DNA of 64,000 bases from an uncultured virus (IMG/VR IMGVR_UViG_3300042445_002020) (taxonomy: Duplodnaviria > Heunggongvirae > Uroviricota > Caudoviricetes), in the IMG/VR virus record IMGVR_UViG_3300042445_002020; one strand, written 5' to 3'. A model generated the notes under the pieces. That model saw only the letters and a list, made by a program, of their open reading frames with translations, searched no databases and was not told the origin of the DNA. Positions 1,534-54,585 of the stretch are shown piece by piece (the stretch's first letter is position 1; each line of letters begins with the position of its first letter). Both the position numbers and the translations under genes were made by a program.

Positions 1534-2283
1534 ATGCCAATAGATTTATCAAGTGAACAATTAAATTCGTTAGGTACTAAATTACTTAATAATGATAATA
1601 TAGTTAAGTCTGGATTAGTACTTTATTTAGATGCAACGATAAGTGATTCCTATCCTGGAACAGGAACTGTTTGGTATGATTTATCAGGTAATGGTAATAA
1701 TTTTAACATTGTTGCTACTGCATTTAATAAAACAAATCAAGGTTATATGGATTTTAATGGTTCTTATGGTTGTGCAAAAAATAGTACAGATTTATCTATA
1801 TCGGGTAACATAACATATGTTGTTTGGACAAGAATTAAAAACAGTACTGCAGAATGGAGAACATTAACGAGAGGATATGGTGGTGACCATAATGTTATTA
1901 TTTATTCTGGTGGTTGGGAAATTGGTATGTATGATAATGATAGTGCGGGATTTATGGGTACAGGTTATTCACAACAAAGTTTACCAAATTACGGAACATC
2001 GAATTGGATTTGTATGTATTGGAGGTGGCAAACAAGTAGTCCATACTATCAAATGTCATTTAATGACACACCAGGTACAATAAGAGGTTCATTAACAAAT
2101 TCAAACGCATATCATACTAGGGGATTTGGTAGTATAGGTGCGTACCATAATGGTAGTACCGACCCTAGTTCAGTTTCACAACCATGGGGTGATATTGGAT
2201 TATTCATGTGTTATAATCGGGTATTAACTGATAGTGAATTGTTACAAAATTATAATGCAACTAGAGGTAAATTCGCTTATTAA
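1534..2283 (+). CDS. LamG-like lectin domain virion protein
   Basis: GLVLYLDA...SYPGTGTVWYDLSGNGN...YNRVLTDSELLQNYNA; paralogue of 724..1407. Confidence 0.8.
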   Translation: MPIDLSSEQLNSLGTKLLNNDNIVKSGLVLYLDATISDSYPGTGTVWYDLSGNGNNFNIVATAFNKTNQGYMDFNGSYGCAKNSTDLSISGNITYVVWTRIKNSTAEWRTLTRGYGGDHNVIIYSGGWEIGMYDNDSAGFMGTGYSQQSLPNYGTSNWICMYWRWQTSSPYYQMSFNDTPGTIRGSLTNSNAYHTRGFGSIGAYHNGSTDPSSVSQPWGDIGLFMCYNRVLTDSELLQNYNATRGKFAY

Positions 2284-2295
2284 AAATAACATATT

Positions 2296-3123
2296 ATGCC
2301 ACTTGATATATCGGGACAAATTATAAATAATGTACAACTAAAGAATTATAATACAACATCTTTAGTTAGAACAAATCTAATGTTATATTTAGATGCTCAA
2401 GAACATGCGTCTTATCCTGGTTCGGGTTCTACATGGTACGATTTAAGTGGGAATGGTTATGATTTTACATTGGTTAATAGTCCTACTTGGGGTGTGTATA
2501 ATAGAGCAAGTGCTTTCCAATTTAGTGGTTCAAACGATTACGCAACGAGAGCGGGAAGTATATCACAAAATATAGGAGCTGCAGGTACAATTACATTAAT
2601 GATGTCAAGTATTGGTAACACAAACTTTGGTGCTTGTTCTAGATTGTTTAGTGTAAATGATGGTTCCTCAGTTAATAACGACCACAGTACATATTTCACT
2701 TTACCTTCATGTGATGAAACACGGTATGGTTTATGGTGGAATTCATCATTTGGTGGAATTGCTGGATTATATCCAACAACAGTATTAAAGGCGGCAAATG
2801 ACCCATACAGAATTATTACATATAAATGGACCGCAAATGGAACCGCATTTGTTTTTGTTAATGGAGTACAAGAGGCTAGTGGAGCAATTGGAAATGCATT
2901 TTCATATACAAATGTTGGTAGGATGACAGTTGCAATGAATTCGGCGTTAACTTTAGAAAATGCATATGTTAGGGTTGCTGCGGTTACTTTATATGATAGG
3001 GCGTTAAGTAATGCTGAGATTTTACAAAATTATCAATTTTTTAGAAGTAGATTTGAAAAATATTACGATTGTGGTTACGGATGTCAATTGTATAATTACG
3101 ACCCAGGTTGTATTGCCTGTTAA
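2296..3123 (+). CDS. LamG-like lectin domain protein with a Cys/Tyr-rich C-terminal extension
   Basis: LMLYLDA...SYPGSGSTWYDLSGNG...YDRALSNAEILQNY, followed by YYDCGYGCQLYNYDPGCIAC. Confidence 0.8.
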   Translation: MPLDISGQIINNVQLKNYNTTSLVRTNLMLYLDAQEHASYPGSGSTWYDLSGNGYDFTLVNSPTWGVYNRASAFQFSGSNDYATRAGSISQNIGAAGTITLMMSSIGNTNFGACSRLFSVNDGSSVNNDHSTYFTLPSCDETRYGLWWNSSFGGIAGLYPTTVLKAANDPYRIITYKWTANGTAFVFVNGVQEASGAIGNAFSYTNVGRMTVAMNSALTLENAYVRVAAVTLYDRALSNAEILQNYQFFRSRFEKYYDCGYGCQLYNYDPGCIAC

Positions 3124-8517: not shown

Positions 8518-9303
8518 ATGGCATTTTATATAGGAGGAAACAAATTTAGTGCAAGATTTCATGACGGGTCAACATCCGCCAAGGCCGCACCATCTCTACA
8601 ACATCTTGCGGAGTTGGGTATAAGAACTAATGGTTTCTATTGGGTGAATCCACAAGATGCATATTCACCAATTTATATTTATGTCGATTTCAATTATAGA
8701 AGAAATGAAGCATGGGCGTTGGTCCTCTCAAATAGAATTAATACAGGAGCATTAAATAGTGGTAGTGTTACTGCAGATGGAAACACAGGAGTATCAGCAC
8801 AAACATATGTTACATATTCAAATGCGGTTAATAACATAAATTATAAAGGATCTTATGGAAACACCAATTTAGATTTTAACTGTATGGTTGGTGTTAAGTA
8901 CTGGAAACAATTAGGTAAAAATATCTGTCAAATTGTTTCAACATCCGCACGGACATTATCCGATACGGGAAATCACACAAAAAGATTTCGTTGGGGATTT
9001 CGGGATATGTCTGGAACGTATGCGTTTCAAAACATTTATGCAATTAAAGATGAGGGTGGTGGAACACCCGGTTTTTATGGTTACCACGCATCAAATGGTT
9101 ACTCTTTATCAACATATGATAATGACCAAGATGCATATGGTGCTAGTTGCTCAGTAGCATATACTAATTACCCTTGGTGGTATGGTGCTTGTTGGGACGG
9201 CAATTACTTTGGAGGAAGTGGTCATGCGGATGGACCGTATTGGTCAGGGTCGGGTGGTGATTATCATAACTATGGAGGAATCTATATAGGTGGTTATATT
9301 TAA
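8518..9303 (+). CDS. Fibrinogen C-terminal (FReD)-like domain protein, tandem paralogue
   Basis: YHASNGYSLSTYDNDQD...C...PWWYGACWDGN; highly similar to 7719..8513. Confidence 0.75.
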   Translation: MAFYIGGNKFSARFHDGSTSAKAAPSLQHLAELGIRTNGFYWVNPQDAYSPIYIYVDFNYRRNEAWALVLSNRINTGALNSGSVTADGNTGVSAQTYVTYSNAVNNINYKGSYGNTNLDFNCMVGVKYWKQLGKNICQIVSTSARTLSDTGNHTKRFRWGFRDMSGTYAFQNIYAIKDEGGGTPGFYGYHASNGYSLSTYDNDQDAYGASCSVAYTNYPWWYGACWDGNYFGGSGHADGPYWSGSGGDYHNYGGIYIGGYI

Positions 9304-48465: not shown

Positions 48466-49205
48466 TGAAACACATTATTTTTAAAATGGGGGTAGAGTCT
48501 CCTGGGTATGTAACTAAGTTAAGTAGTTATTTAAACTACACCGTTGGTAGAATACATGCTGACTATGACGATAACAGAGTTGAATTAATAAAAATGAATG
48601 CAGTTGTTGTTCCCGAGGAATTTGCTAGAGGATATATCTTCGCAGATATCTATAAGGAATATGTTTCAATTAGAACTAATTCTAACGTTATAGATGAGTT
48701 CCCACAATTTGCAAACTCGGGAGAACTTGAAACTGAAAAAGTAAAATATTTTTTAACAGATGAGGATAGAGAATTGGCAGTTAAGTTTAATAAGTTCGTA
48801 ATGTTAAAAGTCATCGCCGATAGATTTTCTGAAAGAATGAAAAATCTAATTGTTGATGCTTCTAACTTAGAGGTTGCAACTTGGGAAGAACAAAAAAGAG
48901 AGGCGTTACTTTACCAATCAGATAATACCGCCAGTACGCCATTGATTGATATATTGGCAACAGGTAGAGGTGTAACTAAACAAGAGTTAGTTACTAAAAT
49001 TTTAACAAATGTTGAGTCATATAAAATAAAATTAGCTAATTTACTTGTTGAACAACAACAATTAGAACAAAGAGTTAAAGCATGTCAAAACGTTCCTGAT
49101 TGTCATAGATTGAAACATGAGAAATTTGGTGTTAGTATGAGTTACCAACAACAATTAGATGAGAATGTTGAGACTTCACCTTTAACATTAGCAATGGATT
49201 TTTAA
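48465..49205 (+). CDS. Hypothetical protein, tail-fibre-assembly-like
   Basis: E..TWEEQKREA...TPLIDILATGRG...ELVTKIL resembles phage tail accessory proteins. Confidence 0.5.
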   Translation: MKHIIFKMGVESPGYVTKLSSYLNYTVGRIHADYDDNRVELIKMNAVVVPEEFARGYIFADIYKEYVSIRTNSNVIDEFPQFANSGELETEKVKYFLTDEDRELAVKFNKFVMLKVIADRFSERMKNLIVDASNLEVATWEEQKREALLYQSDNTASTPLIDILATGRGVTKQELVTKILTNVESYKIKLANLLVEQQQLEQRVKACQNVPDCHRLKHEKFGVSMSYQQQLDENVETSPLTLAMDF

Positions 49206-49206
49206 T

Positions 49207-49851
49207 ATGATTGAAAATTATTTAGAAACTTATGAATATGGTATCATAACATCAGACTTCATAGATTCTACAACAACTAATTCCCTTTCTGATAAAATAT
49301 TGGAAAGGGAATCTTACATTAAGGGACTTAACGATGGAACAAAGTTACACATGAACATTGTAAACCATAGTAATATAACAAATTATCACACATATTATAA
49401 TTTAATTGATTTAGAAATCCCTGAAACTGACATTTTAATATCTAAGATTAAAGAATTGATTTTCAATACATTAGGATGGGAAAATTTCTATATTAAAATG
49501 TGGGCAAACATTTTTAGACAAGGTGATTATCTTGGACTACACAAACATATGGATAATATGAGTAAAAAGAAATTTCCATATGCACTTAGCGGTCATTGCT
49601 TTCTTTACTCATCAGAAAAAACACATACAACATATTTGTTTAAACAAAAAAAAATTGGTATATTTGATAGTAGTATCAATGTAGTCGACCTCCCAAACAT
49701 TCCTGGAGAAGTTTCAATATTTTCATCATATATTGAACATGAATTTAAACAATGGAATGGTGATTTAAGAGTGGGAATCGCATTTGATATTAATAACGAA
49801 CCTGACGCCAATCCAAATTGGCTCAAGACTAAACAATTTAGATACGTTTAA
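49207..49851 (+). CDS. Putative 2OG-Fe(II) oxygenase-like protein
   Basis: MWANIFRQGD...HKH, LSG, PGEVSIFSSYIEH, RVGIAFD. Confidence 0.7.
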   Translation: MIENYLETYEYGIITSDFIDSTTTNSLSDKILERESYIKGLNDGTKLHMNIVNHSNITNYHTYYNLIDLEIPETDILISKIKELIFNTLGWENFYIKMWANIFRQGDYLGLHKHMDNMSKKKFPYALSGHCFLYSSEKTHTTYLFKQKKIGIFDSSINVVDLPNIPGEVSIFSSYIEHEFKQWNGDLRVGIAFDINNEPDANPNWLKTKQFRYV

Positions 49852-50859
49852 ATGAACTTTGTAATTAATGGTACATGTGCTAAAGGATGTTCTTTTTGTT
49901 TCACAAAGGAAGAAGCTAGAGTACAACATACTTTAGGTGAAATGACTTTATCTAAAGTAGATGAGTTAATTGACCACTACCAACTTAACAATAGTAAAGA
50001 AGAGATTACCATATTAGGTGGTGAACCAACACAACATTCGAACTTCACAGGAATTGTTGAACATATCATATCTAAAGGATTAAAAATCAATCTTGTAAGT
50101 AACTTTCTGTTTAGTAAAACCACAAGAGAATTCATCATTAAAAACATTAGACACATTCGATGGGTATTCCCAAACGCTGCTGAGTTAGATGAGAAGAATA
50201 GAATGGTTATATTCAAAAAGAATTACACTGAAATTTACAACGCTTATCTTAACACATGGGGGTTTGATAATCACCCAAGATTATATTTGGCAATTACAAT
50301 GTCAAGTAATTGGAAAGAAAAGAATTTCTATGAGTACATTAAATGGTTGTACCATCAATTGGATGGTAAGATTAATGCCATTAGAGTTGGGTTAGATTTA
50401 ACAAACATATATCTTGTTAACAACAAAGAAATGGGTTCGGAGATTACTAAGATACTTAAATTTGGTAAGTATAATGATATTAGAATTACTTCCGATTGCC
50501 AAGTACCACCATGTTTATGGGAAGGTAAATCAAAAGAATCTGTAATGGAAAATTCATTAGGGTTTGCCACATTTAAAATACCGGAGTATAAAACAATATG
50601 TGGATTTATGCCCTTAGATGTTTTCCCTGACGGAAGTTCAATACATTGTTATCCATTGGAAGATAAAGTTAAAATCGATAATGTATTGAATATTACGGGA
50701 GAAAGTAATATATTATCATTAAGAGAAGAGTTCGATAAATTATACACAGAAAATCATAAAAATTATACATTACCAAAAGACTGTTTAGATTGTCATTTCT
50801 ATGACACGTTATGTAACGGAATTTGTGGTGGATGTTTAGAAGGAAACCAACATGAGTAA
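49852..50859 (+). CDS. Radical SAM protein with C-terminal SPASM-like domain
   Basis: CAKGCSFC, LGGEP, C-terminal C..C..CLDC..C.GICGGC. Confidence 0.9.
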   Translation: MNFVINGTCAKGCSFCFTKEEARVQHTLGEMTLSKVDELIDHYQLNNSKEEITILGGEPTQHSNFTGIVEHIISKGLKINLVSNFLFSKTTREFIIKNIRHIRWVFPNAAELDEKNRMVIFKKNYTEIYNAYLNTWGFDNHPRLYLAITMSSNWKEKNFYEYIKWLYHQLDGKINAIRVGLDLTNIYLVNNKEMGSEITKILKFGKYNDIRITSDCQVPPCLWEGKSKESVMENSLGFATFKIPEYKTICGFMPLDVFPDGSSIHCYPLEDKVKIDNVLNITGESNILSLREEFDKLYTENHKNYTLPKDCLDCHFYDTLCNGICGGCLEGNQHE

Positions 50860-51877
50860 AATATTTTCAATACCATTAAATCCAATGTTATCTGAGGAAG
50901 ATTTCATTGGTAGATTCGTACCATTCTTACAAGAACATAAAGATTGGATATATGATGTTTACTTTACATGTAGAATCCCACCATTCACCCAAGATGCAAT
51001 GGGTTCTGTATTTACACCGGAAGATAGAAACGTTGTAATAGAGAACGCGCTTCAAATACAGGATGTGTTGGGTATTAGAGTTAGCGCAACATTTAATAAT
51101 ATTAACATATCCCCTAATTTCAATAACTATCAAATGTTTATTGAGAACCTTAAACCATTATATGAAAAGGGATTAAGATGTATAACCATACCACACGCAC
51201 ATTGGGTTGCTATGGGTCTTAAGAAACACTTTCCTGATATGGAAATTAAGAATACTATTCTTAGGAAGGTAGCAACAGCACAAGACTTCTGGTACAATGC
51301 GGAGCAAGGATTTGATTACATCAACATCGATAGAATTTTAATGAGAGATGTTGAAGAATTAAAAAACATTAGACGAGCTCAATTACAATTCCAACAGAAA
51401 TATGGTAGGTATGTAAACATTGCATTATTAACGAATGAAGGTTGTTTAGGTAGATGTCCAATGATGGATGAACACTATTCATACAATAACTTAAAGACTG
51501 ATAATGAGTTACCATATTTTAGACACGAGATATCAAAAGTAACTTGTGAATATAAATGGGAAAAAGAAATTAATGCGTTCTTTTTTAAAGCTGCAACCAT
51601 ACCACCATTTAAGAAAGACTATGATGAATTTCTTAACTATGTTGATGTATTCAAAATGCACGGAAGAGATAGTTTCAATAAGTTAGATGATACTATGAGT
51701 GTAATTAAAGCATATGCAAAGGGAAATGAAATATTAGGACCAACATCTGAAATATATTTAGATGGTGTACCATCAGATGAATTAGATGGTTGGAGAAATA
51801 AAATTAAAAAATGTAAATTTCAATGTTGGGATTGTAATTACTGCGACATTGTTGCGGACCATAAAAAAGGAAAGTGA
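50852..51877 (+). CDS. U32 peptidase-family (Fe-S hydroxylase-like) protein
   Basis: INIDRILMRD, NEGCLGRCP..H, FKMHGR, CKFQCWDCNYC. Confidence 0.7.
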   Translation: MSKIFSIPLNPMLSEEDFIGRFVPFLQEHKDWIYDVYFTCRIPPFTQDAMGSVFTPEDRNVVIENALQIQDVLGIRVSATFNNINISPNFNNYQMFIENLKPLYEKGLRCITIPHAHWVAMGLKKHFPDMEIKNTILRKVATAQDFWYNAEQGFDYINIDRILMRDVEELKNIRRAQLQFQQKYGRYVNIALLTNEGCLGRCPMMDEHYSYNNLKTDNELPYFRHEISKVTCEYKWEKEINAFFFKAATIPPFKKDYDEFLNYVDVFKMHGRDSFNKLDDTMSVIKAYAKGNEILGPTSEIYLDGVPSDELDGWRNKIKKCKFQCWDCNYCDIVADHKKGK

Positions 51878-52539
51878 TGGATTATATTAAACATATTGAA
51901 GACTCAATACATTGGGCAGAATTAGAAGTATCTAAATTAACCTTAGATATTATAAACATCCAAGGAATCACAAGTAATAAAGTGAAGTGTTTACTCAATA
52001 ACATATGTAATATTGATGGTGCACATTATTTAGAAATTGGTGTATTCAGGGGTTCCACATTTTGTTCTGCAATTTATGGTAATGATATTAAAGCAACTGG
52101 TATTGATAATTGGAGTTCACCATTTTTAATGCCAAACGGAATTAGTCAAAAGATGACATCTTATTTAAGAAGTCAACCCAACGACCCGAAAGAAGAGTTC
52201 TTATCGAACGTAAAGAAATTTGGTAACGTGGAAAACATGAATGTGTATCGTGCAAATTATTTAGAGTTTGATTATTCAACCATAGAACCATTAGATATTA
52301 TATTCTATGATGGGGAAACAAAATACTATGACCAATACACAACAATTAAGAAATTAATTCCACATATGTCAGATAAATGTATTCTCATTGTAGATGATTG
52401 GAATTGGCAAAAAGAGGGTGCAATTAAAGCATTAGAAGAAAGTAATTCTATTATCACATATCAAAAAAATATACATACAAGTGGAGAAGATTCTAAAGAC
52501 TTTTGGAATGGTCTTGGAATATTTTTAATTGAAAGGTAA
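51874..52539 (+). CDS. Class I SAM-dependent methyltransferase
   Basis: YLEIGVFRGST, GIDNW, DIIFYDG, IVDDWNW. Confidence 0.85.
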   Translation: MMDYIKHIEDSIHWAELEVSKLTLDIINIQGITSNKVKCLLNNICNIDGAHYLEIGVFRGSTFCSAIYGNDIKATGIDNWSSPFLMPNGISQKMTSYLRSQPNDPKEEFLSNVKKFGNVENMNVYRANYLEFDYSTIEPLDIIFYDGETKYYDQYTTIKKLIPHMSDKCILIVDDWNWQKEGAIKALEESNSIITYQKNIHTSGEDSKDFWNGLGIFLIER

Positions 52540-52568
52540 TTGATTATCTGATATTTTTTGTTTATATT
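52540..52568 (+). promoter_or_regulatory. Sigma70-like promoter TTGATT-17-TATATT
   Basis: Lies directly upstream of the tRNA; same pattern as 47653 and 27072. Confidence 0.55.
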
Positions 52569-52582
52569 ATAATATATTGTAA

Positions 52583-52672
52583 GGGGAGGTGGGTGAGTGG
52601 TTTAAACCGACAGCCTCCGAAGCTGCTATTGGACTTAACATTCAATCGAGAGTCCGAATCTCTTCCTCCCCG
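52583..52672 (+). tRNA. Type II (long variable arm) tRNA with Ser-like body and CCG (Arg) anticodon
   Basis: Acceptor GGGGAGG/CCTCCCC, D arm GGTG-AGTGGTTTA-AACC, anticodon arm ACAGC-CTCCGAA-GCTGC, variable stem ATTGGA/TTCAAT, T arm GAGAG-TCCGAAT-CTCTT, discriminator G, no encoded CCA. Confidence 0.85.
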
Positions 52673-52705
52673 CAATTTTATAAACTTTTCTTAAACAAAA
52701 ACAAA

Positions 52706-53590
52706 ATGAGAAAAACAATCACAATGCTATCGCTAATGTTAGCACTATTGTTTACTACCACTATGTCATTTGGACAATACAGTAGTAGTGCAATTCAGAA
52801 AGGTTCAGAACAATCCTTAAAAGTTCAAACGGACACAGTCCCTAATCAATTACAAGAAATTGTTGTTACAGCAAAGAAGGTACCTTTAATGACCAAGGTA
52901 GGTCCTTACGGTCAACCACTTTGGACAACAATGAGAATGTTTGCATCCACTAGAGTTTATGTGATGAACCCACCAGGTACCGCAATGTACGAGAAGTGGT
53001 TTGATATCAGACAAAGAAGAAACGGACCGGCACAAATCAGAATGAGGGATGAGTTCACATTCGGTTTGGGTAAAAGACTTCAGTTAGACTTATATTCACA
53101 TACGGTTTATGATGGATACAATGGAGACAAAGAATTCAAATGGAGAGGGTTCTCTTGGGAATTTCGTTATGCTCTTGCCGATTGGGGTAAGTTATGGGGT
53201 AACCCAACTCTTTATTGGGAAACAAAAATGTTAGATGGTCGTTGGGGTATCGAACCAAAATTATTATTGGGTGACAGAATCGGAGAAAGAGGTATTTGGG
53301 GATTCAACGCAATTTATGAAGGTAATTTATCAAGAGTCAAAGAACTTCGTGAAGACGAATACGCTTACACTGCATCGTACGCTAACATCATCAATAATGA
53401 TTTAACTTTAGGTGTGTCACATATGTTTAGATACAACGATTTTGATGGAGGTTCACAAGAGTGGTATCTTGGGCCACTACTTCAATATCGATTTAATAAC
53501 AAGGCTTATTTGAATGTTGAGCACATGCCAGGTCTTAATCAAGACGCAAAACAATCAAGAACCACAATTATATTTGCATGGAGATTTTAA
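52706..53590 (+). CDS. Outer-membrane beta-barrel protein with signal peptide
   Basis: True start MRKTITMLSLMLALLF... (the track start lies inside the tRNA). LQEIVVTA TonB-box-like motif, amphipathic strands, ends IFAWRF. Confidence 0.75.
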   Translation: MRKTITMLSLMLALLFTTTMSFGQYSSSAIQKGSEQSLKVQTDTVPNQLQEIVVTAKKVPLMTKVGPYGQPLWTTMRMFASTRVYVMNPPGTAMYEKWFDIRQRRNGPAQIRMRDEFTFGLGKRLQLDLYSHTVYDGYNGDKEFKWRGFSWEFRYALADWGKLWGNPTLYWETKMLDGRWGIEPKLLLGDRIGERGIWGFNAIYEGNLSRVKELREDEYAYTASYANIINNDLTLGVSHMFRYNDFDGGSQEWYLGPLLQYRFNNKAYLNVEHMPGLNQDAKQSRTTIIFAWRF

Positions 53591-54585
53591 TCAAAGGACA
53601 AGAGTTTCTTGTCTACTTAATATTCATTATGTTCGTAACAGGTATCCTCAAAGAAAGAGGATACCTTATGGACATATTCAGACTACTTGAACAAAAAGTT
53701 AAGTCTAAGAGGATGGTAGTGTTTTTAGTATCACTCTTTGGTGGTATCCTACCTATTCCTGGACGTGTTGCATTATCGGCATCAATGTTAAACAGCATTG
53801 CTCCTGTTGATAATAAGAAACGTAAGAAGTTTGGTATCATCGATTACTTAGCAACACATCATTACTATCTATGGTCTCCATTAGAGAAAACGGTTATCAT
53901 TCCAATGGCTGTGTTAAGTTTAACTTATATGCAATTCATGTCATATATTTGGCCATTACTTTTAATATCGGTATTGTATGTTACATATTATATCTTATCA
54001 TTAAATGACGATGAGATTGATATTGAAGTTAAAGATGGACCAATTAATATGCAAAACATAACGATGGTGGTTATACCATTTTTAGTAACCATATTAATGT
54101 GTGTGTTTTTTACTAAATACTATTTTGGTTTCTTCACAGGATTCACAATATGGTTAGTTTATTACTCTAAAAGTTGGAGTAAAATATTGGGGTATATCGA
54201 TTGGGAACTAATATGGATCGTTGCTTTAGTTATTATTTTAGGTAACTTGGTTGGTTCATATTATAATGTGATTGAAGGGTACATTAAACAATATAGTAAA
54301 CCCGAACACATTTTAGTTGTTGCAATGATATCATTTCTTTCATCATTTATGTTGGGGTCATCCGCAAAATATGCAAGTATCGTTAGTTTATTAACAAGTG
54401 TCTTTGGGATGCATTATTTCGTATTATTCTTTACATTAGAATATTCAGCATATTTGATATCCCCATCACATAAATGTCTACCAATCGGTCAAAAGTATTT
54501 CCATACTGGATTTATGACCTACTTGAAGGCTTTAATTGTGTGGATATCTCTTATGATTACTTATGCACTATTGACAATAATTTAA
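53578..54585 (+). CDS. Multi-pass inner-membrane permease (DUF401/ion-transporter-like)
   Basis: Many hydrophobic helices; GGILPIPGRVALSA and YLISPSHKCL. Confidence 0.7.
   Translation: MEILIKGQEFLVYLIFIMFVTGILKERGYLMDIFRLLEQKVKSKRMVVFLVSLFGGILPIPGRVALSASMLNSIAPVDNKKRKKFGIIDYLATHHYYLWSPLEKTVIIPMAVLSLTYMQFMSYIWPLLLISVLYVTYYILSLNDDEIDIEVKDGPINMQNITMVVIPFLVTILMCVFFTKYYFGFFTGFTIWLVYYSKSWSKILGYIDWELIWIVALVIILGNLVGSYYNVIEGYIKQYSKPEHILVVAMISFLSSFMLGSSAKYASIVSLLTSVFGMHYFVLFFTLEYSAYLISPSHKCLPIGQKYFHTGFMTYLKALIVWISLMITYALLTII

Follow-up and report, generated by a model that had tools for sequence, protein, structure and literature searches.

A serine-type tRNA with a CCG anticodon in T4-like lake phages, a possible arginine-compatible decoder of CGG

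The locus and its phage relatives

The window analysed here, a stretch of 64,000 nucleotides from an uncultured virus, has a GC content of ~31%, is densely coding and combines genes for tail-fibre-like and virion proteins with genes for many radical-SAM enzymes, 2OG oxygenases, glycosyltransferases, methyltransferases and a carbamoyltransferase. One tRNA was called in it by ARAGORN, at 52583-52673(+), as tRNA-Arg(ccg); this gene, its neighbours and genes containing the codon CGG are collected in Table 1. A T4-type gp23 in a 251-kb relative (G002), homologues of the gene adjoining the tRNA (45% identical, in 126 cyanomyovirus records), a 324-kb relative rated 97% complete (G006), which has no CCG tRNA, and the nature of the sequencing runs with the stretch, which are lake-water metagenomes, therefore point to a T4-like jumbo phage from lake water. 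Shine-Dalgarno-like cores occur within 20 nt of the start in 6 of 68 genes of the window, 8 of 260 in the 251-kb and 5 of 379 in the 324-kb relative, and the leaders at the gene starts of all three are A-rich; the scarcity of such motifs in the sequences hints at a Bacteroidota-like host and is no proof of one. A TAnnTTTG motif upstream of genes was not enriched in the window or in the 251-kb relative. Tailoring enzymes are packed very densely at 11000-39500 and 49200-50900 of the window, where there are at least seven radical-SAM/SPASM proteins and five 2OG-Fe(II) oxygenases, along with GT7-type galactosyltransferases that have lectin-like domains, a carbamoyltransferase, methyltransferases and a split P-loop kinase.

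In both large relatives, 21-26 tRNA genes for most amino acids are clustered, at 45.6-50.6 kb in G002 (L054) and at 110.4-115.4 kb in G006 (L179). The 21 tRNAs called by ARAGORN in G002 include Arg(tct) and Arg(acg), and there is no CGG reader besides the CCG tRNA, which is located ~200 kb away; the arginine tRNAs of G006 are Arg(acg) and Arg(tct) only. ARAGORN misses three tRNAs of G006 that are found by Rfam, among them Asp GUC and a CAU tRNA, neither of which reads CGG. As the clusters of the relatives contain no other CGG reader, the CCG tRNA fills exactly the open codon.

Table 1. Features of the window around the CCG tRNA and genes with CGG codons
Feature	Coordinates	Strand	Remarks
Two small structural-type genes	1534..3123	+	one CGG each (2218, 2722)
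Fibre gene, 1510 aa	3185..7717	+	4 CGG (4676, 5039, 5687, 6914)
261-aa gene	8518..9303	+	2 CGG (8950, 9001)
Fibre-like gene, 1764 aa	40067..45361	+	5 CGG (40544, 41216, 42203, 43301, 44924)
Cys-rich TIM-barrel protein, upstream	50852..51877	+	kept with or without tRNA
Methyltransf_24 methyltransferase, upstream	51874..52539	+	kept with or without tRNA
Promoter-like TTGATT-17-TATATT	52540..52568	+	conserved TTTTGTTTATATT core at 52556-52568
Class II (Ser-type) tRNA, anticodon CCG, 90 nt	52583..52672	+	ARAGORN, Rfam RF00005, pairing in nine variants
Anticodon CCG, reads CGG	52617..52619	+	ARAGORN (tRNA position 35); invariant in relatives
Downstream gene, 294 aa	52706..53590	+	signal-peptide-like N terminus; tRNA in its leader
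DUF401/TIGR00529-like membrane protein	53578..54585	+	next in the same gene run as 52706..53590

Insertion site and neighbouring genes

The CCG tRNA is a present/absent insertion between the promoter and the leader of the downstream gene. Among 80 loci recovered by a synteny search with the upstream protein, the junction between the methyltransferase and the downstream gene is covered in 58, of which 23 have the tRNA and 35 have not, with an intergenic gap of 163-172 nt in the former and mostly 36-91 nt in the latter. In the tRNA-less loci, a TTTTTTGTTTATATT motif is found directly before the A-rich leader of the downstream gene; in the tRNA-bearing loci, the tRNA lies between this motif and the leader. 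The tRNA had been credited with a promoter of its own and a promoter-like motif does exist in front of it; however, this motif also precedes the downstream gene in tRNA-less relatives and therefore is not a private promoter of the tRNA but belongs to the downstream gene. A scan for sigma-70 promoters stayed at chance level (4 found versus 2.7 expected), and the promoter core was discarded as a repeated phage promoter, having 2 matches in the window versus 2.16 expected. In a scan of the window, nothing resembling a terminator was found in the stretch from the tRNA to the downstream gene, and contigs from RNA libraries (four runs) bridge the two, such contigs being no proof of transcription, transcript ends or CCA addition.

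No family match was obtained for the downstream gene. Upstream, the Cys-rich TIM-barrel protein displays invariant cysteines at 198, 202, 232, 321, 325, 328 and 331, and in the cyanophages P-RSM1 and S-RIM14 the TIM barrel and the methyltransferase are fused in proteins of ~525-547 aa annotated as hypothetical. Its structural model is a TIM barrel with a mean pLDDT of 68.6, for which the U32 peptidase 5d88 ranks second in the fold matches, among generic TIM barrels of equal score; searches of Pfam, NCBIfam and PDB sequences, made with a U32 hydroxylase in mind, found no match. Speculatively, the proteins of 50852-52539 might form a TrhP/TrmR-like hydroxylase-methylase pair beside a tRNA.

Structure of the tRNA

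Searched alone as a region of 451 bases, the gene scores 50.0 bits against Rfam RF00005 in 'evalue' mode (gathering threshold 29, E 7e-10) with a span of 52583-52672. When the whole window was searched in 'gathering' mode, no family was reported, the CCG tRNA included, because the filters of that mode missed it; class II tRNAs in AT-rich sequence can fail to pass the fast filters of Rfam. The cloverleaf has a 7-bp acceptor stem and a 5-bp T stem, a 3-bp D stem with G13/A22, a D loop AGTGGTTTAA with a U after G18G19 (U20, in both alleles, hence no A20), an anticodon stem with A27.C43 and the loop CTCCGAA, a variable arm with a 6-bp stem and a 7-nt loop, a T loop TCCGAAT with C at position 55 and G73 at 52672; CCA is not encoded. 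C55 and the weak, A/U-rich variable stem are atypical. In all of its structural details, among them the 90-nt cloverleaf, the long variable arm, G73, the lack of A20 and the position of the CCG anticodon, the original prediction was correct. Allo-tRNAs and tRNA-Sec are defined by acceptor/T-stem lengths of 8/4, 9/3 or 8/5, and such an identity was rejected on the basis of the 7/5 stems. For four-bp anticodon stems with C34, reading of A-ending codons too by extended superwobble has been proposed (PMC13092985, available part); in the CCG tRNA such a stem is not fixed, because 3 of 27 copies have A-U and a second allele (allele B) has G.U at 27-43.

Serine ancestry

The serine-type body that had been proposed is supported by the D arm, pairwise comparison, profiles and a search of Bacteroidota genomes. 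The D loop is that of the phage's own Ser(tga) save one base, and the overall layout of the two tRNAs is alike. Of the 68 bacterial loci with the D-arm 21-mer, 64 coincide with a tRNA; 38 of these are tRNA-Ser (gct 27, tga 6, gga 3, cga 1, act 1), each with G73, and 26 are Dehalococcoidia tRNA-Tyr, each with A73; none of these 64 cellular tRNAs has a CCG anticodon. The best 24 pairwise matches among the tRNAs compared are all tRNA-Ser, mostly GCU, with 70-78% identity, and identity to nine Arg tRNAs is at most 58%. Equally, nhmmer profiles scored 51.3 bits for Ser, 22.7 for Tyr, 4.9 for Leu and 3.8 for Arg (Arg 3.8-5.0), with the Ser and Tyr sets chosen by the shared D arm. An unbiased search of 301 Bacteroidota genomes returned four full-length best matches, all four tRNA-Ser(gct), with 70-73% identity, a value too low to name a donor. 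With the tRNA as query, BLAST gave no match in E. coli genomes and, in GenBank phages, weak partial matches only, mostly to tRNA-Ser and tRNA-Tyr. The variable arm is flanked by one unpaired base on each side, as in the phage Ser(tga) and in cellular Ser; in phage Leu and cellular Tyr, three bases remain unpaired 3' of the variable stem. From these comparisons, descent from a gene of the tRNA-Ser(GCU) type, which differs by two changes in the anticodon, is concluded.

Compared with bacterial tRNA-Ser(GCU), the CCG tRNA has in common the long variable arm with its single unpaired bases, G73, a D loop in which GG is preceded by three bases and followed by five, G1-C72, G2-C71 and R4-Y69, and differs in CCG for GCU, C55, A27.C43, a variable stem that is rich in A/U and has a loop of 7-10 nt, and G3-C70, where the 38 cellular tRNA-Ser with the D-arm 21-mer have A or T at position 3. 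Together with the large variable region and G30-C40, the shared pairs and G73 are serine determinants. The C11-G24 pair of bacterial tRNA-Ser is absent, the CCG tRNA having G11-C24, which is not disqualifying because the same D arm occurs in the 38 cellular tRNA-Ser. A serine anticodon (NGA or GCU) is absent, as every copy has CCG.

Conservation and alleles

Conservation of the anticodon in related phages, a check put forward with the original prediction, turned out in its favour, with CCG in 27 of 27 IMG/VR contigs that have the same first 33 nt of the tRNA and in all of the 26 among the 80 syntenic loci that carry it. Over 95 nt, 17 of the 27 contigs, from many samples, are identical, and in three copies C43 is changed to T, restoring A27-U43. 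A pattern of Ser-type D loop, CCG loop and T loop matched 37 IMG/VR loci, 32 of them members of the CCG tRNA family, all with CCG, and the other five tRNA-Ser(cga). Within the tRNA, contigs from the four RNA-library runs do not differ.

Allele B (L115-L117, L142) is ~83% identical to the first allele. It has A-U instead of G-C at pair 30-40 and G-C instead of A-U at pair 52-62, and its pair 27-43 is G.U; one D-loop base is the only difference in the three loops, with CTCCGAA and TCCGAAT unchanged. Across nine variants, 95.7% of cells are paired, double changes are present in 2 of 26 pairs and the covariation score is reached by 4 of 500 shuffles, a modest signal because there is essentially one divergence event. 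These compensatory stem changes nevertheless argue against decay.

CGG codons and the sites they occupy

CGG is the rarest arginine codon in these records. With the tRNA present, 13 CGG occur among 20,830 codons of the window, 22 among 79,299 of G002, 42 among 55,057 of G003 and 16 among 54,484 of G004; with the tRNA absent, the 324-kb relative has 14 among 100,312 codons, mostly in short ORFs without homologues, some of them over the tRNA cluster. In the two fibre genes of the window, the CGN codons are CGG 9, CGT 1, CGA 0 and CGC 0. The 1764-aa fibre-like gene is located 7 kb upstream of the tRNA, and the C terminus of the 1510-aa protein resembles the fibre gp28 of cyanophage P-SCSP1u (8i4m_e, E 2e-19).

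That CGG still means arginine in this phage, as had been claimed, is supported and extended by ortholog pairs, by deep family alignments and by the comparison of single sites. In 78 ortholog pairs of CGG with another codon (inter-genome best-hit alignments of 40-99.5% identity, with G001 excluded as a near-duplicate of the window), the partner is R in 49%, N in 12%, K in 10%, Q in 8% and S in 6%; in the same genes, AGA pairs with R in 63% and serine codons pair with S in 66-72%. A reassignment of CGG to serine would need alignment with Ser at the codon positions, found in 6% versus 49% for Arg, and the log-likelihood of the meaning of CGG is best for Arg (-159.6) versus Lys (-232.1). In the deep families, the CGG site of the propeller protein has R 100, K 13 and S 2 in 121 rows, and the two CGG sites of the carbamoyltransferase have K 69, R 52 and T 1 and K 96, R 20, N 3, H 2 and Q 1, each in 122 rows, so that all three sites tested are 93-99% Lys/Arg columns with serine counts of 2, 0 and 0.

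Between diverged orthologs of 65-80% identity, CGG is kept as CGG in a share of 0.65 of conserved Arg positions, versus 0.25 and 0.24 for CGA and AGG, in fibre and propeller genes of tRNA-bearing relatives, the pairs being not independent; CGT is similarly sticky in some identity bins. The high retention of CGG can be absorbed by a reading as either arginine or serine.

Presence of the tRNA and use of CGG

In genes of at least 700 aa, 45 CGG were counted among 64,730 codons of five tRNA-bearing records and none among 31,016 codons of the tRNA-less G006, G007 and G009, of which G007 looks like the same phage as G006. For 33 loci, the tRNA status is known and at least 8.4 kb of upstream sequence is covered; 18 of them bear the tRNA and have 2-6 CGG per 10 kb of the fibre module, and the 15 without it have 0-1. 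Position 25 of the propeller protein is encoded by CGG in 16 and AGA in 6 tRNA-plus loci, with no Ser codon in any of them, and by AGA, AGG, CGT, CGC, AAG or AAA, never CGG, in ~32 tRNA-minus loci. At recurrent sites, CGG is the majority codon with the tRNA; without it, AGA, AGG, CGT or Lys codons are used and CGG never occurs.

A tree built from the adjacent 1.7 kb requires three changes in the state of the tRNA and contains two supported independent pairs (three on all branches); both supported pairs go in the same direction, and the sign test (p 0.5) cannot reach significance because there are only two to three independent contrasts. The more distant G008 (L202-L205), with 36% GC and no tRNA at the site, yet has 28 CGG among 19,085 codons, which is possibly due to a different host. 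A search for a partner gene co-occurring with the tRNA found only fibre-type genes and small ORFs.

A possible CGG decoder compatible with arginine

tRNAs in which body and anticodon do not match are the way by which genetic codes change, and natural cases caught in the act are few. The CCG tRNA is a natural test of what decides the meaning of a codon and comes with a built-in comparison, as close relatives with and without it differ in their tolerance of CGG at conserved virion-protein sites. A search of the literature found no report of a phage serine-type tRNA with a CCG anticodon.

Most likely, the CCG tRNA is a working decoder of CGG. More specifically, we tentatively prefer, with somewhat less than even confidence, a functional phage-borne CGG decoder that arose from a tRNA-Ser(GCU)-type gene and decodes in a way compatible with arginine. 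Structure, conservation, serine ancestry, insertion site and codon patterns are observed, whereas we infer expression, processing, decoding and, above all, the charging synthetase. Placed in the leader of a two-gene membrane-protein unit, the tRNA would probably be transcribed from the promoter of that unit, be cut out of the precursor transcript and travel with the tail-fibre module. In a phage group of ~31% GC, whose tRNA clusters provide Arg(ACG) and Arg(TCT) but nothing else that reads CGG, CGG would be almost unusable; the tRNA would make it readable, such that phages with the tRNA could keep CGG at Arg/Lys-constrained fibre and propeller sites where phages without have AGA or AGG, the product working as if arginine were inserted. 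The serine-shaped tRNA might have been recruited to arginine via C35, G36, G73 and G2-C71, despite U20 and the long arm.

C35, G36, G73 and G2-C71 are given as arginine determinants in Table 1 of PMC9976931, and all are present in the CCG tRNA. The tRNA-Arg combination of C35 with G36 or U36 and A/G73 is thus present as C35, G36 and G73, and the cognate codon stands at arginine positions in proteins; a class I body with a short variable loop is not found, as the variable arm is long. Arginine is further pointed to by the Arg/Lys constraint of the sites, by AGA/AGG at the same sites in tRNA-less orthologues, by the absence of Ser codons there in tRNA-bearing phages and by the persistence of CGG instead of its reversion. 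Against arginine stands the frame, fully serine-like by sequence, together with the lack of A20, the main bacterial arginine determinant (PMC9976931, as available), which is present in the phage's own Arg(tct) and Arg(acg) tRNAs. The serine frame finds no explanation under arginine decoding because an arginine-inserting CGG reader would be one mutation away from the phage tRNA-Arg(ACG), and the link between tRNA and CGG use with its two to three contrasts, as well as the CGG-rich G008 without tRNA at the site, equally weigh against it. As far as sequences can tell, the codon evidence favours delivery of arginine and the identity rules favour serine. Among five partial records, no phage ArgRS (PF00750) or class-II core domain (PF00587) was found, and fragments cannot show absence. 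Charging by ArgRS would mean that a class II tRNA lacking A20 had gone over to a class I synthetase; charging by SerRS would mean that a phage gives a sense codon a new meaning in structural proteins of its own.

Alternative readings

The anticodon is ignored by SerRS, and tRNA-Ser(GCU), in which C35 is already present, has to be protected from ArgRS in every bacterium. Charging by SerRS, with CGG read as serine either wholly or in competition with a host tRNA-Arg, is possible, though on balance unlikely, and would amount to phage-driven recoding of a sense codon or to statistical Arg/Ser decoding at a few fibre and propeller sites. The serine-type frame, consistent in D arm, the 24 best pairwise matches, profile scores and Bacteroidota matches, speaks for it, as do the serine determinants (G73, C72, G2-C71, R4-Y69, the large variable region and G30-C40) with the missing A20 (PMC9976931, available part). 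The retention of CGG above CGA and AGG fits a CGG that is not synonymous with other arginine codons, and the single mutation that separates tRNA-Arg(ACG) from an arginine-type CGG reader counts toward serine as well. The codon sites speak against it, as CGG pairs far more often with Arg codons than with Ser codons, true Ser codons behave differently, the three deep-family sites are Lys/Arg columns and tRNA-less orthologs have AGA/AGG at the same sites. If serine were wanted, AGT or AGC would be one step away from AGA, yet no Ser codon appears at propeller position 25 in tRNA-plus loci, and, if serine were harmful, CGG should revert to AGG or CGA, but instead it persists. In the more far-reaching form of this reading, which is equally doubtful, the seryl-charged tRNA would be the sole CGG reader in the infected cell, and the phage would set the meaning of a sense codon. 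A few conserved basic sites of fibre and propeller proteins would then become Ser or Arg/Ser only when the tRNA is expressed, which would give switchable or statistical receptor-binding proteins and the first phage-encoded recoding of a sense codon. Recoding of stop codons, to which this would be the counterpart, is known in other phages.

Precedents for a serine reading exist. According to the available parts of PMC8629427 and bioRxiv 10.64898/2026.04.02.715157, no other sense codon is reassigned as often as CGG in low-GC prokaryotes, and its reassignment is marked by a tRNA-CCG without A20. These bacteria, which read CGG as Gln, Trp or Ala, share with the phage an A20-less tRNA-CCG with foreign identity features, an AT-rich genome and a very rare CGG; in contrast, their CGG positions align with the new amino acid and those of the phage with Arg/Lys, and the tRNA is here phage-borne and polymorphic. 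A serine identity for CGG is absent from the available parts of both accounts. An engineered yeast tRNA-Ser (PMC8473984, available part) equally combines a serine body with an arginine anticodon and inserts serine at arginine codons; it is, however, synthetic, carries UCU and is harmful at 3.0% Arg-to-Ser mistranslation, whereas the phage tRNA is a conserved natural gene. The tRNA-Ser(CAG) of Candida with its ambiguous CUG (PMC3697807, available part) is likewise a serine-type tRNA with the anticodon of another amino acid, and the enrichment of CUG in surface proteins can be likened to that of CGG in the phage; the Candida case is, though, eukaryotic, nuclear and a long-settled reassignment, and phage CGG is still at ancestral arginine sites.

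A third possibility, that the tRNA-shaped insert does no bulk decoding and serves another purpose, appears improbable. It could be a signal for processing by RNase P/Z in the leader, a decoy for an anticodon nuclease or an aminoacyl donor for a tRNA-dependent enzyme, with the CGG link arising from linkage to the fibre module or from different hosts of tRNA-plus and tRNA-minus phages. Such roles would suit a tRNA placed between a pre-existing promoter and leader, continuous with the next gene in the absence of a terminator-like site and in the RNA-library contigs, with an atypical C55 and variable stem, and the CGG association with its few independent contrasts; an unchanged anticodon loop between alleles 83% alike is, in addition, expected by chance with ~0.3. 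Furthermore, the nev-tRNAs of nematodes are conserved class II tRNAs with foreign anticodons in organisms whose codons keep their standard meaning (PMC3333845, PMC4300185, available parts), with no detectable mistranslation (PMC4300185); they are, on the other hand, Leu-type and chromosomal, and a link of tRNA presence with codon use is not reported in these parts. Bulk decoding is favoured by CGG counts that split perfectly by tRNA status across the 33 loci, by single sites at which no tRNA-minus locus has CGG, by an anticodon that matches the one arginine codon the phage tRNA sets cannot read, and by a search for co-occurring partners in which fibre-type genes and small ORFs were the only ones to turn up.

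A decaying or neutral tRNA-Ser pseudogene, for which A27.C43, C55, the weak variable stem and the absence from 35 of 58 informative relatives might be quoted, or an assembly error or private mutation, is largely refuted and very improbable, since the gene is kept in 32 contigs and identical in 17 of 27 from many samples, has CCG in every related copy, compensatory changes between alleles, a restored A27-U43 in 3 of 27 copies and 50 bits in Rfam, agrees in contigs of four independent RNA-library runs and tracks the use of CGG with its presence.

The five tRNA-Ser(cga) that matched the search pattern are GC-rich and are found at 188-273 in five viral contigs (L288, L292, L293, L297, L305). They have the anticodon region CTCCGAAAC with a C.C closing mismatch, such that the loop could present either CGA or CCG, and may represent what looks like an intermediate in a change of this kind.
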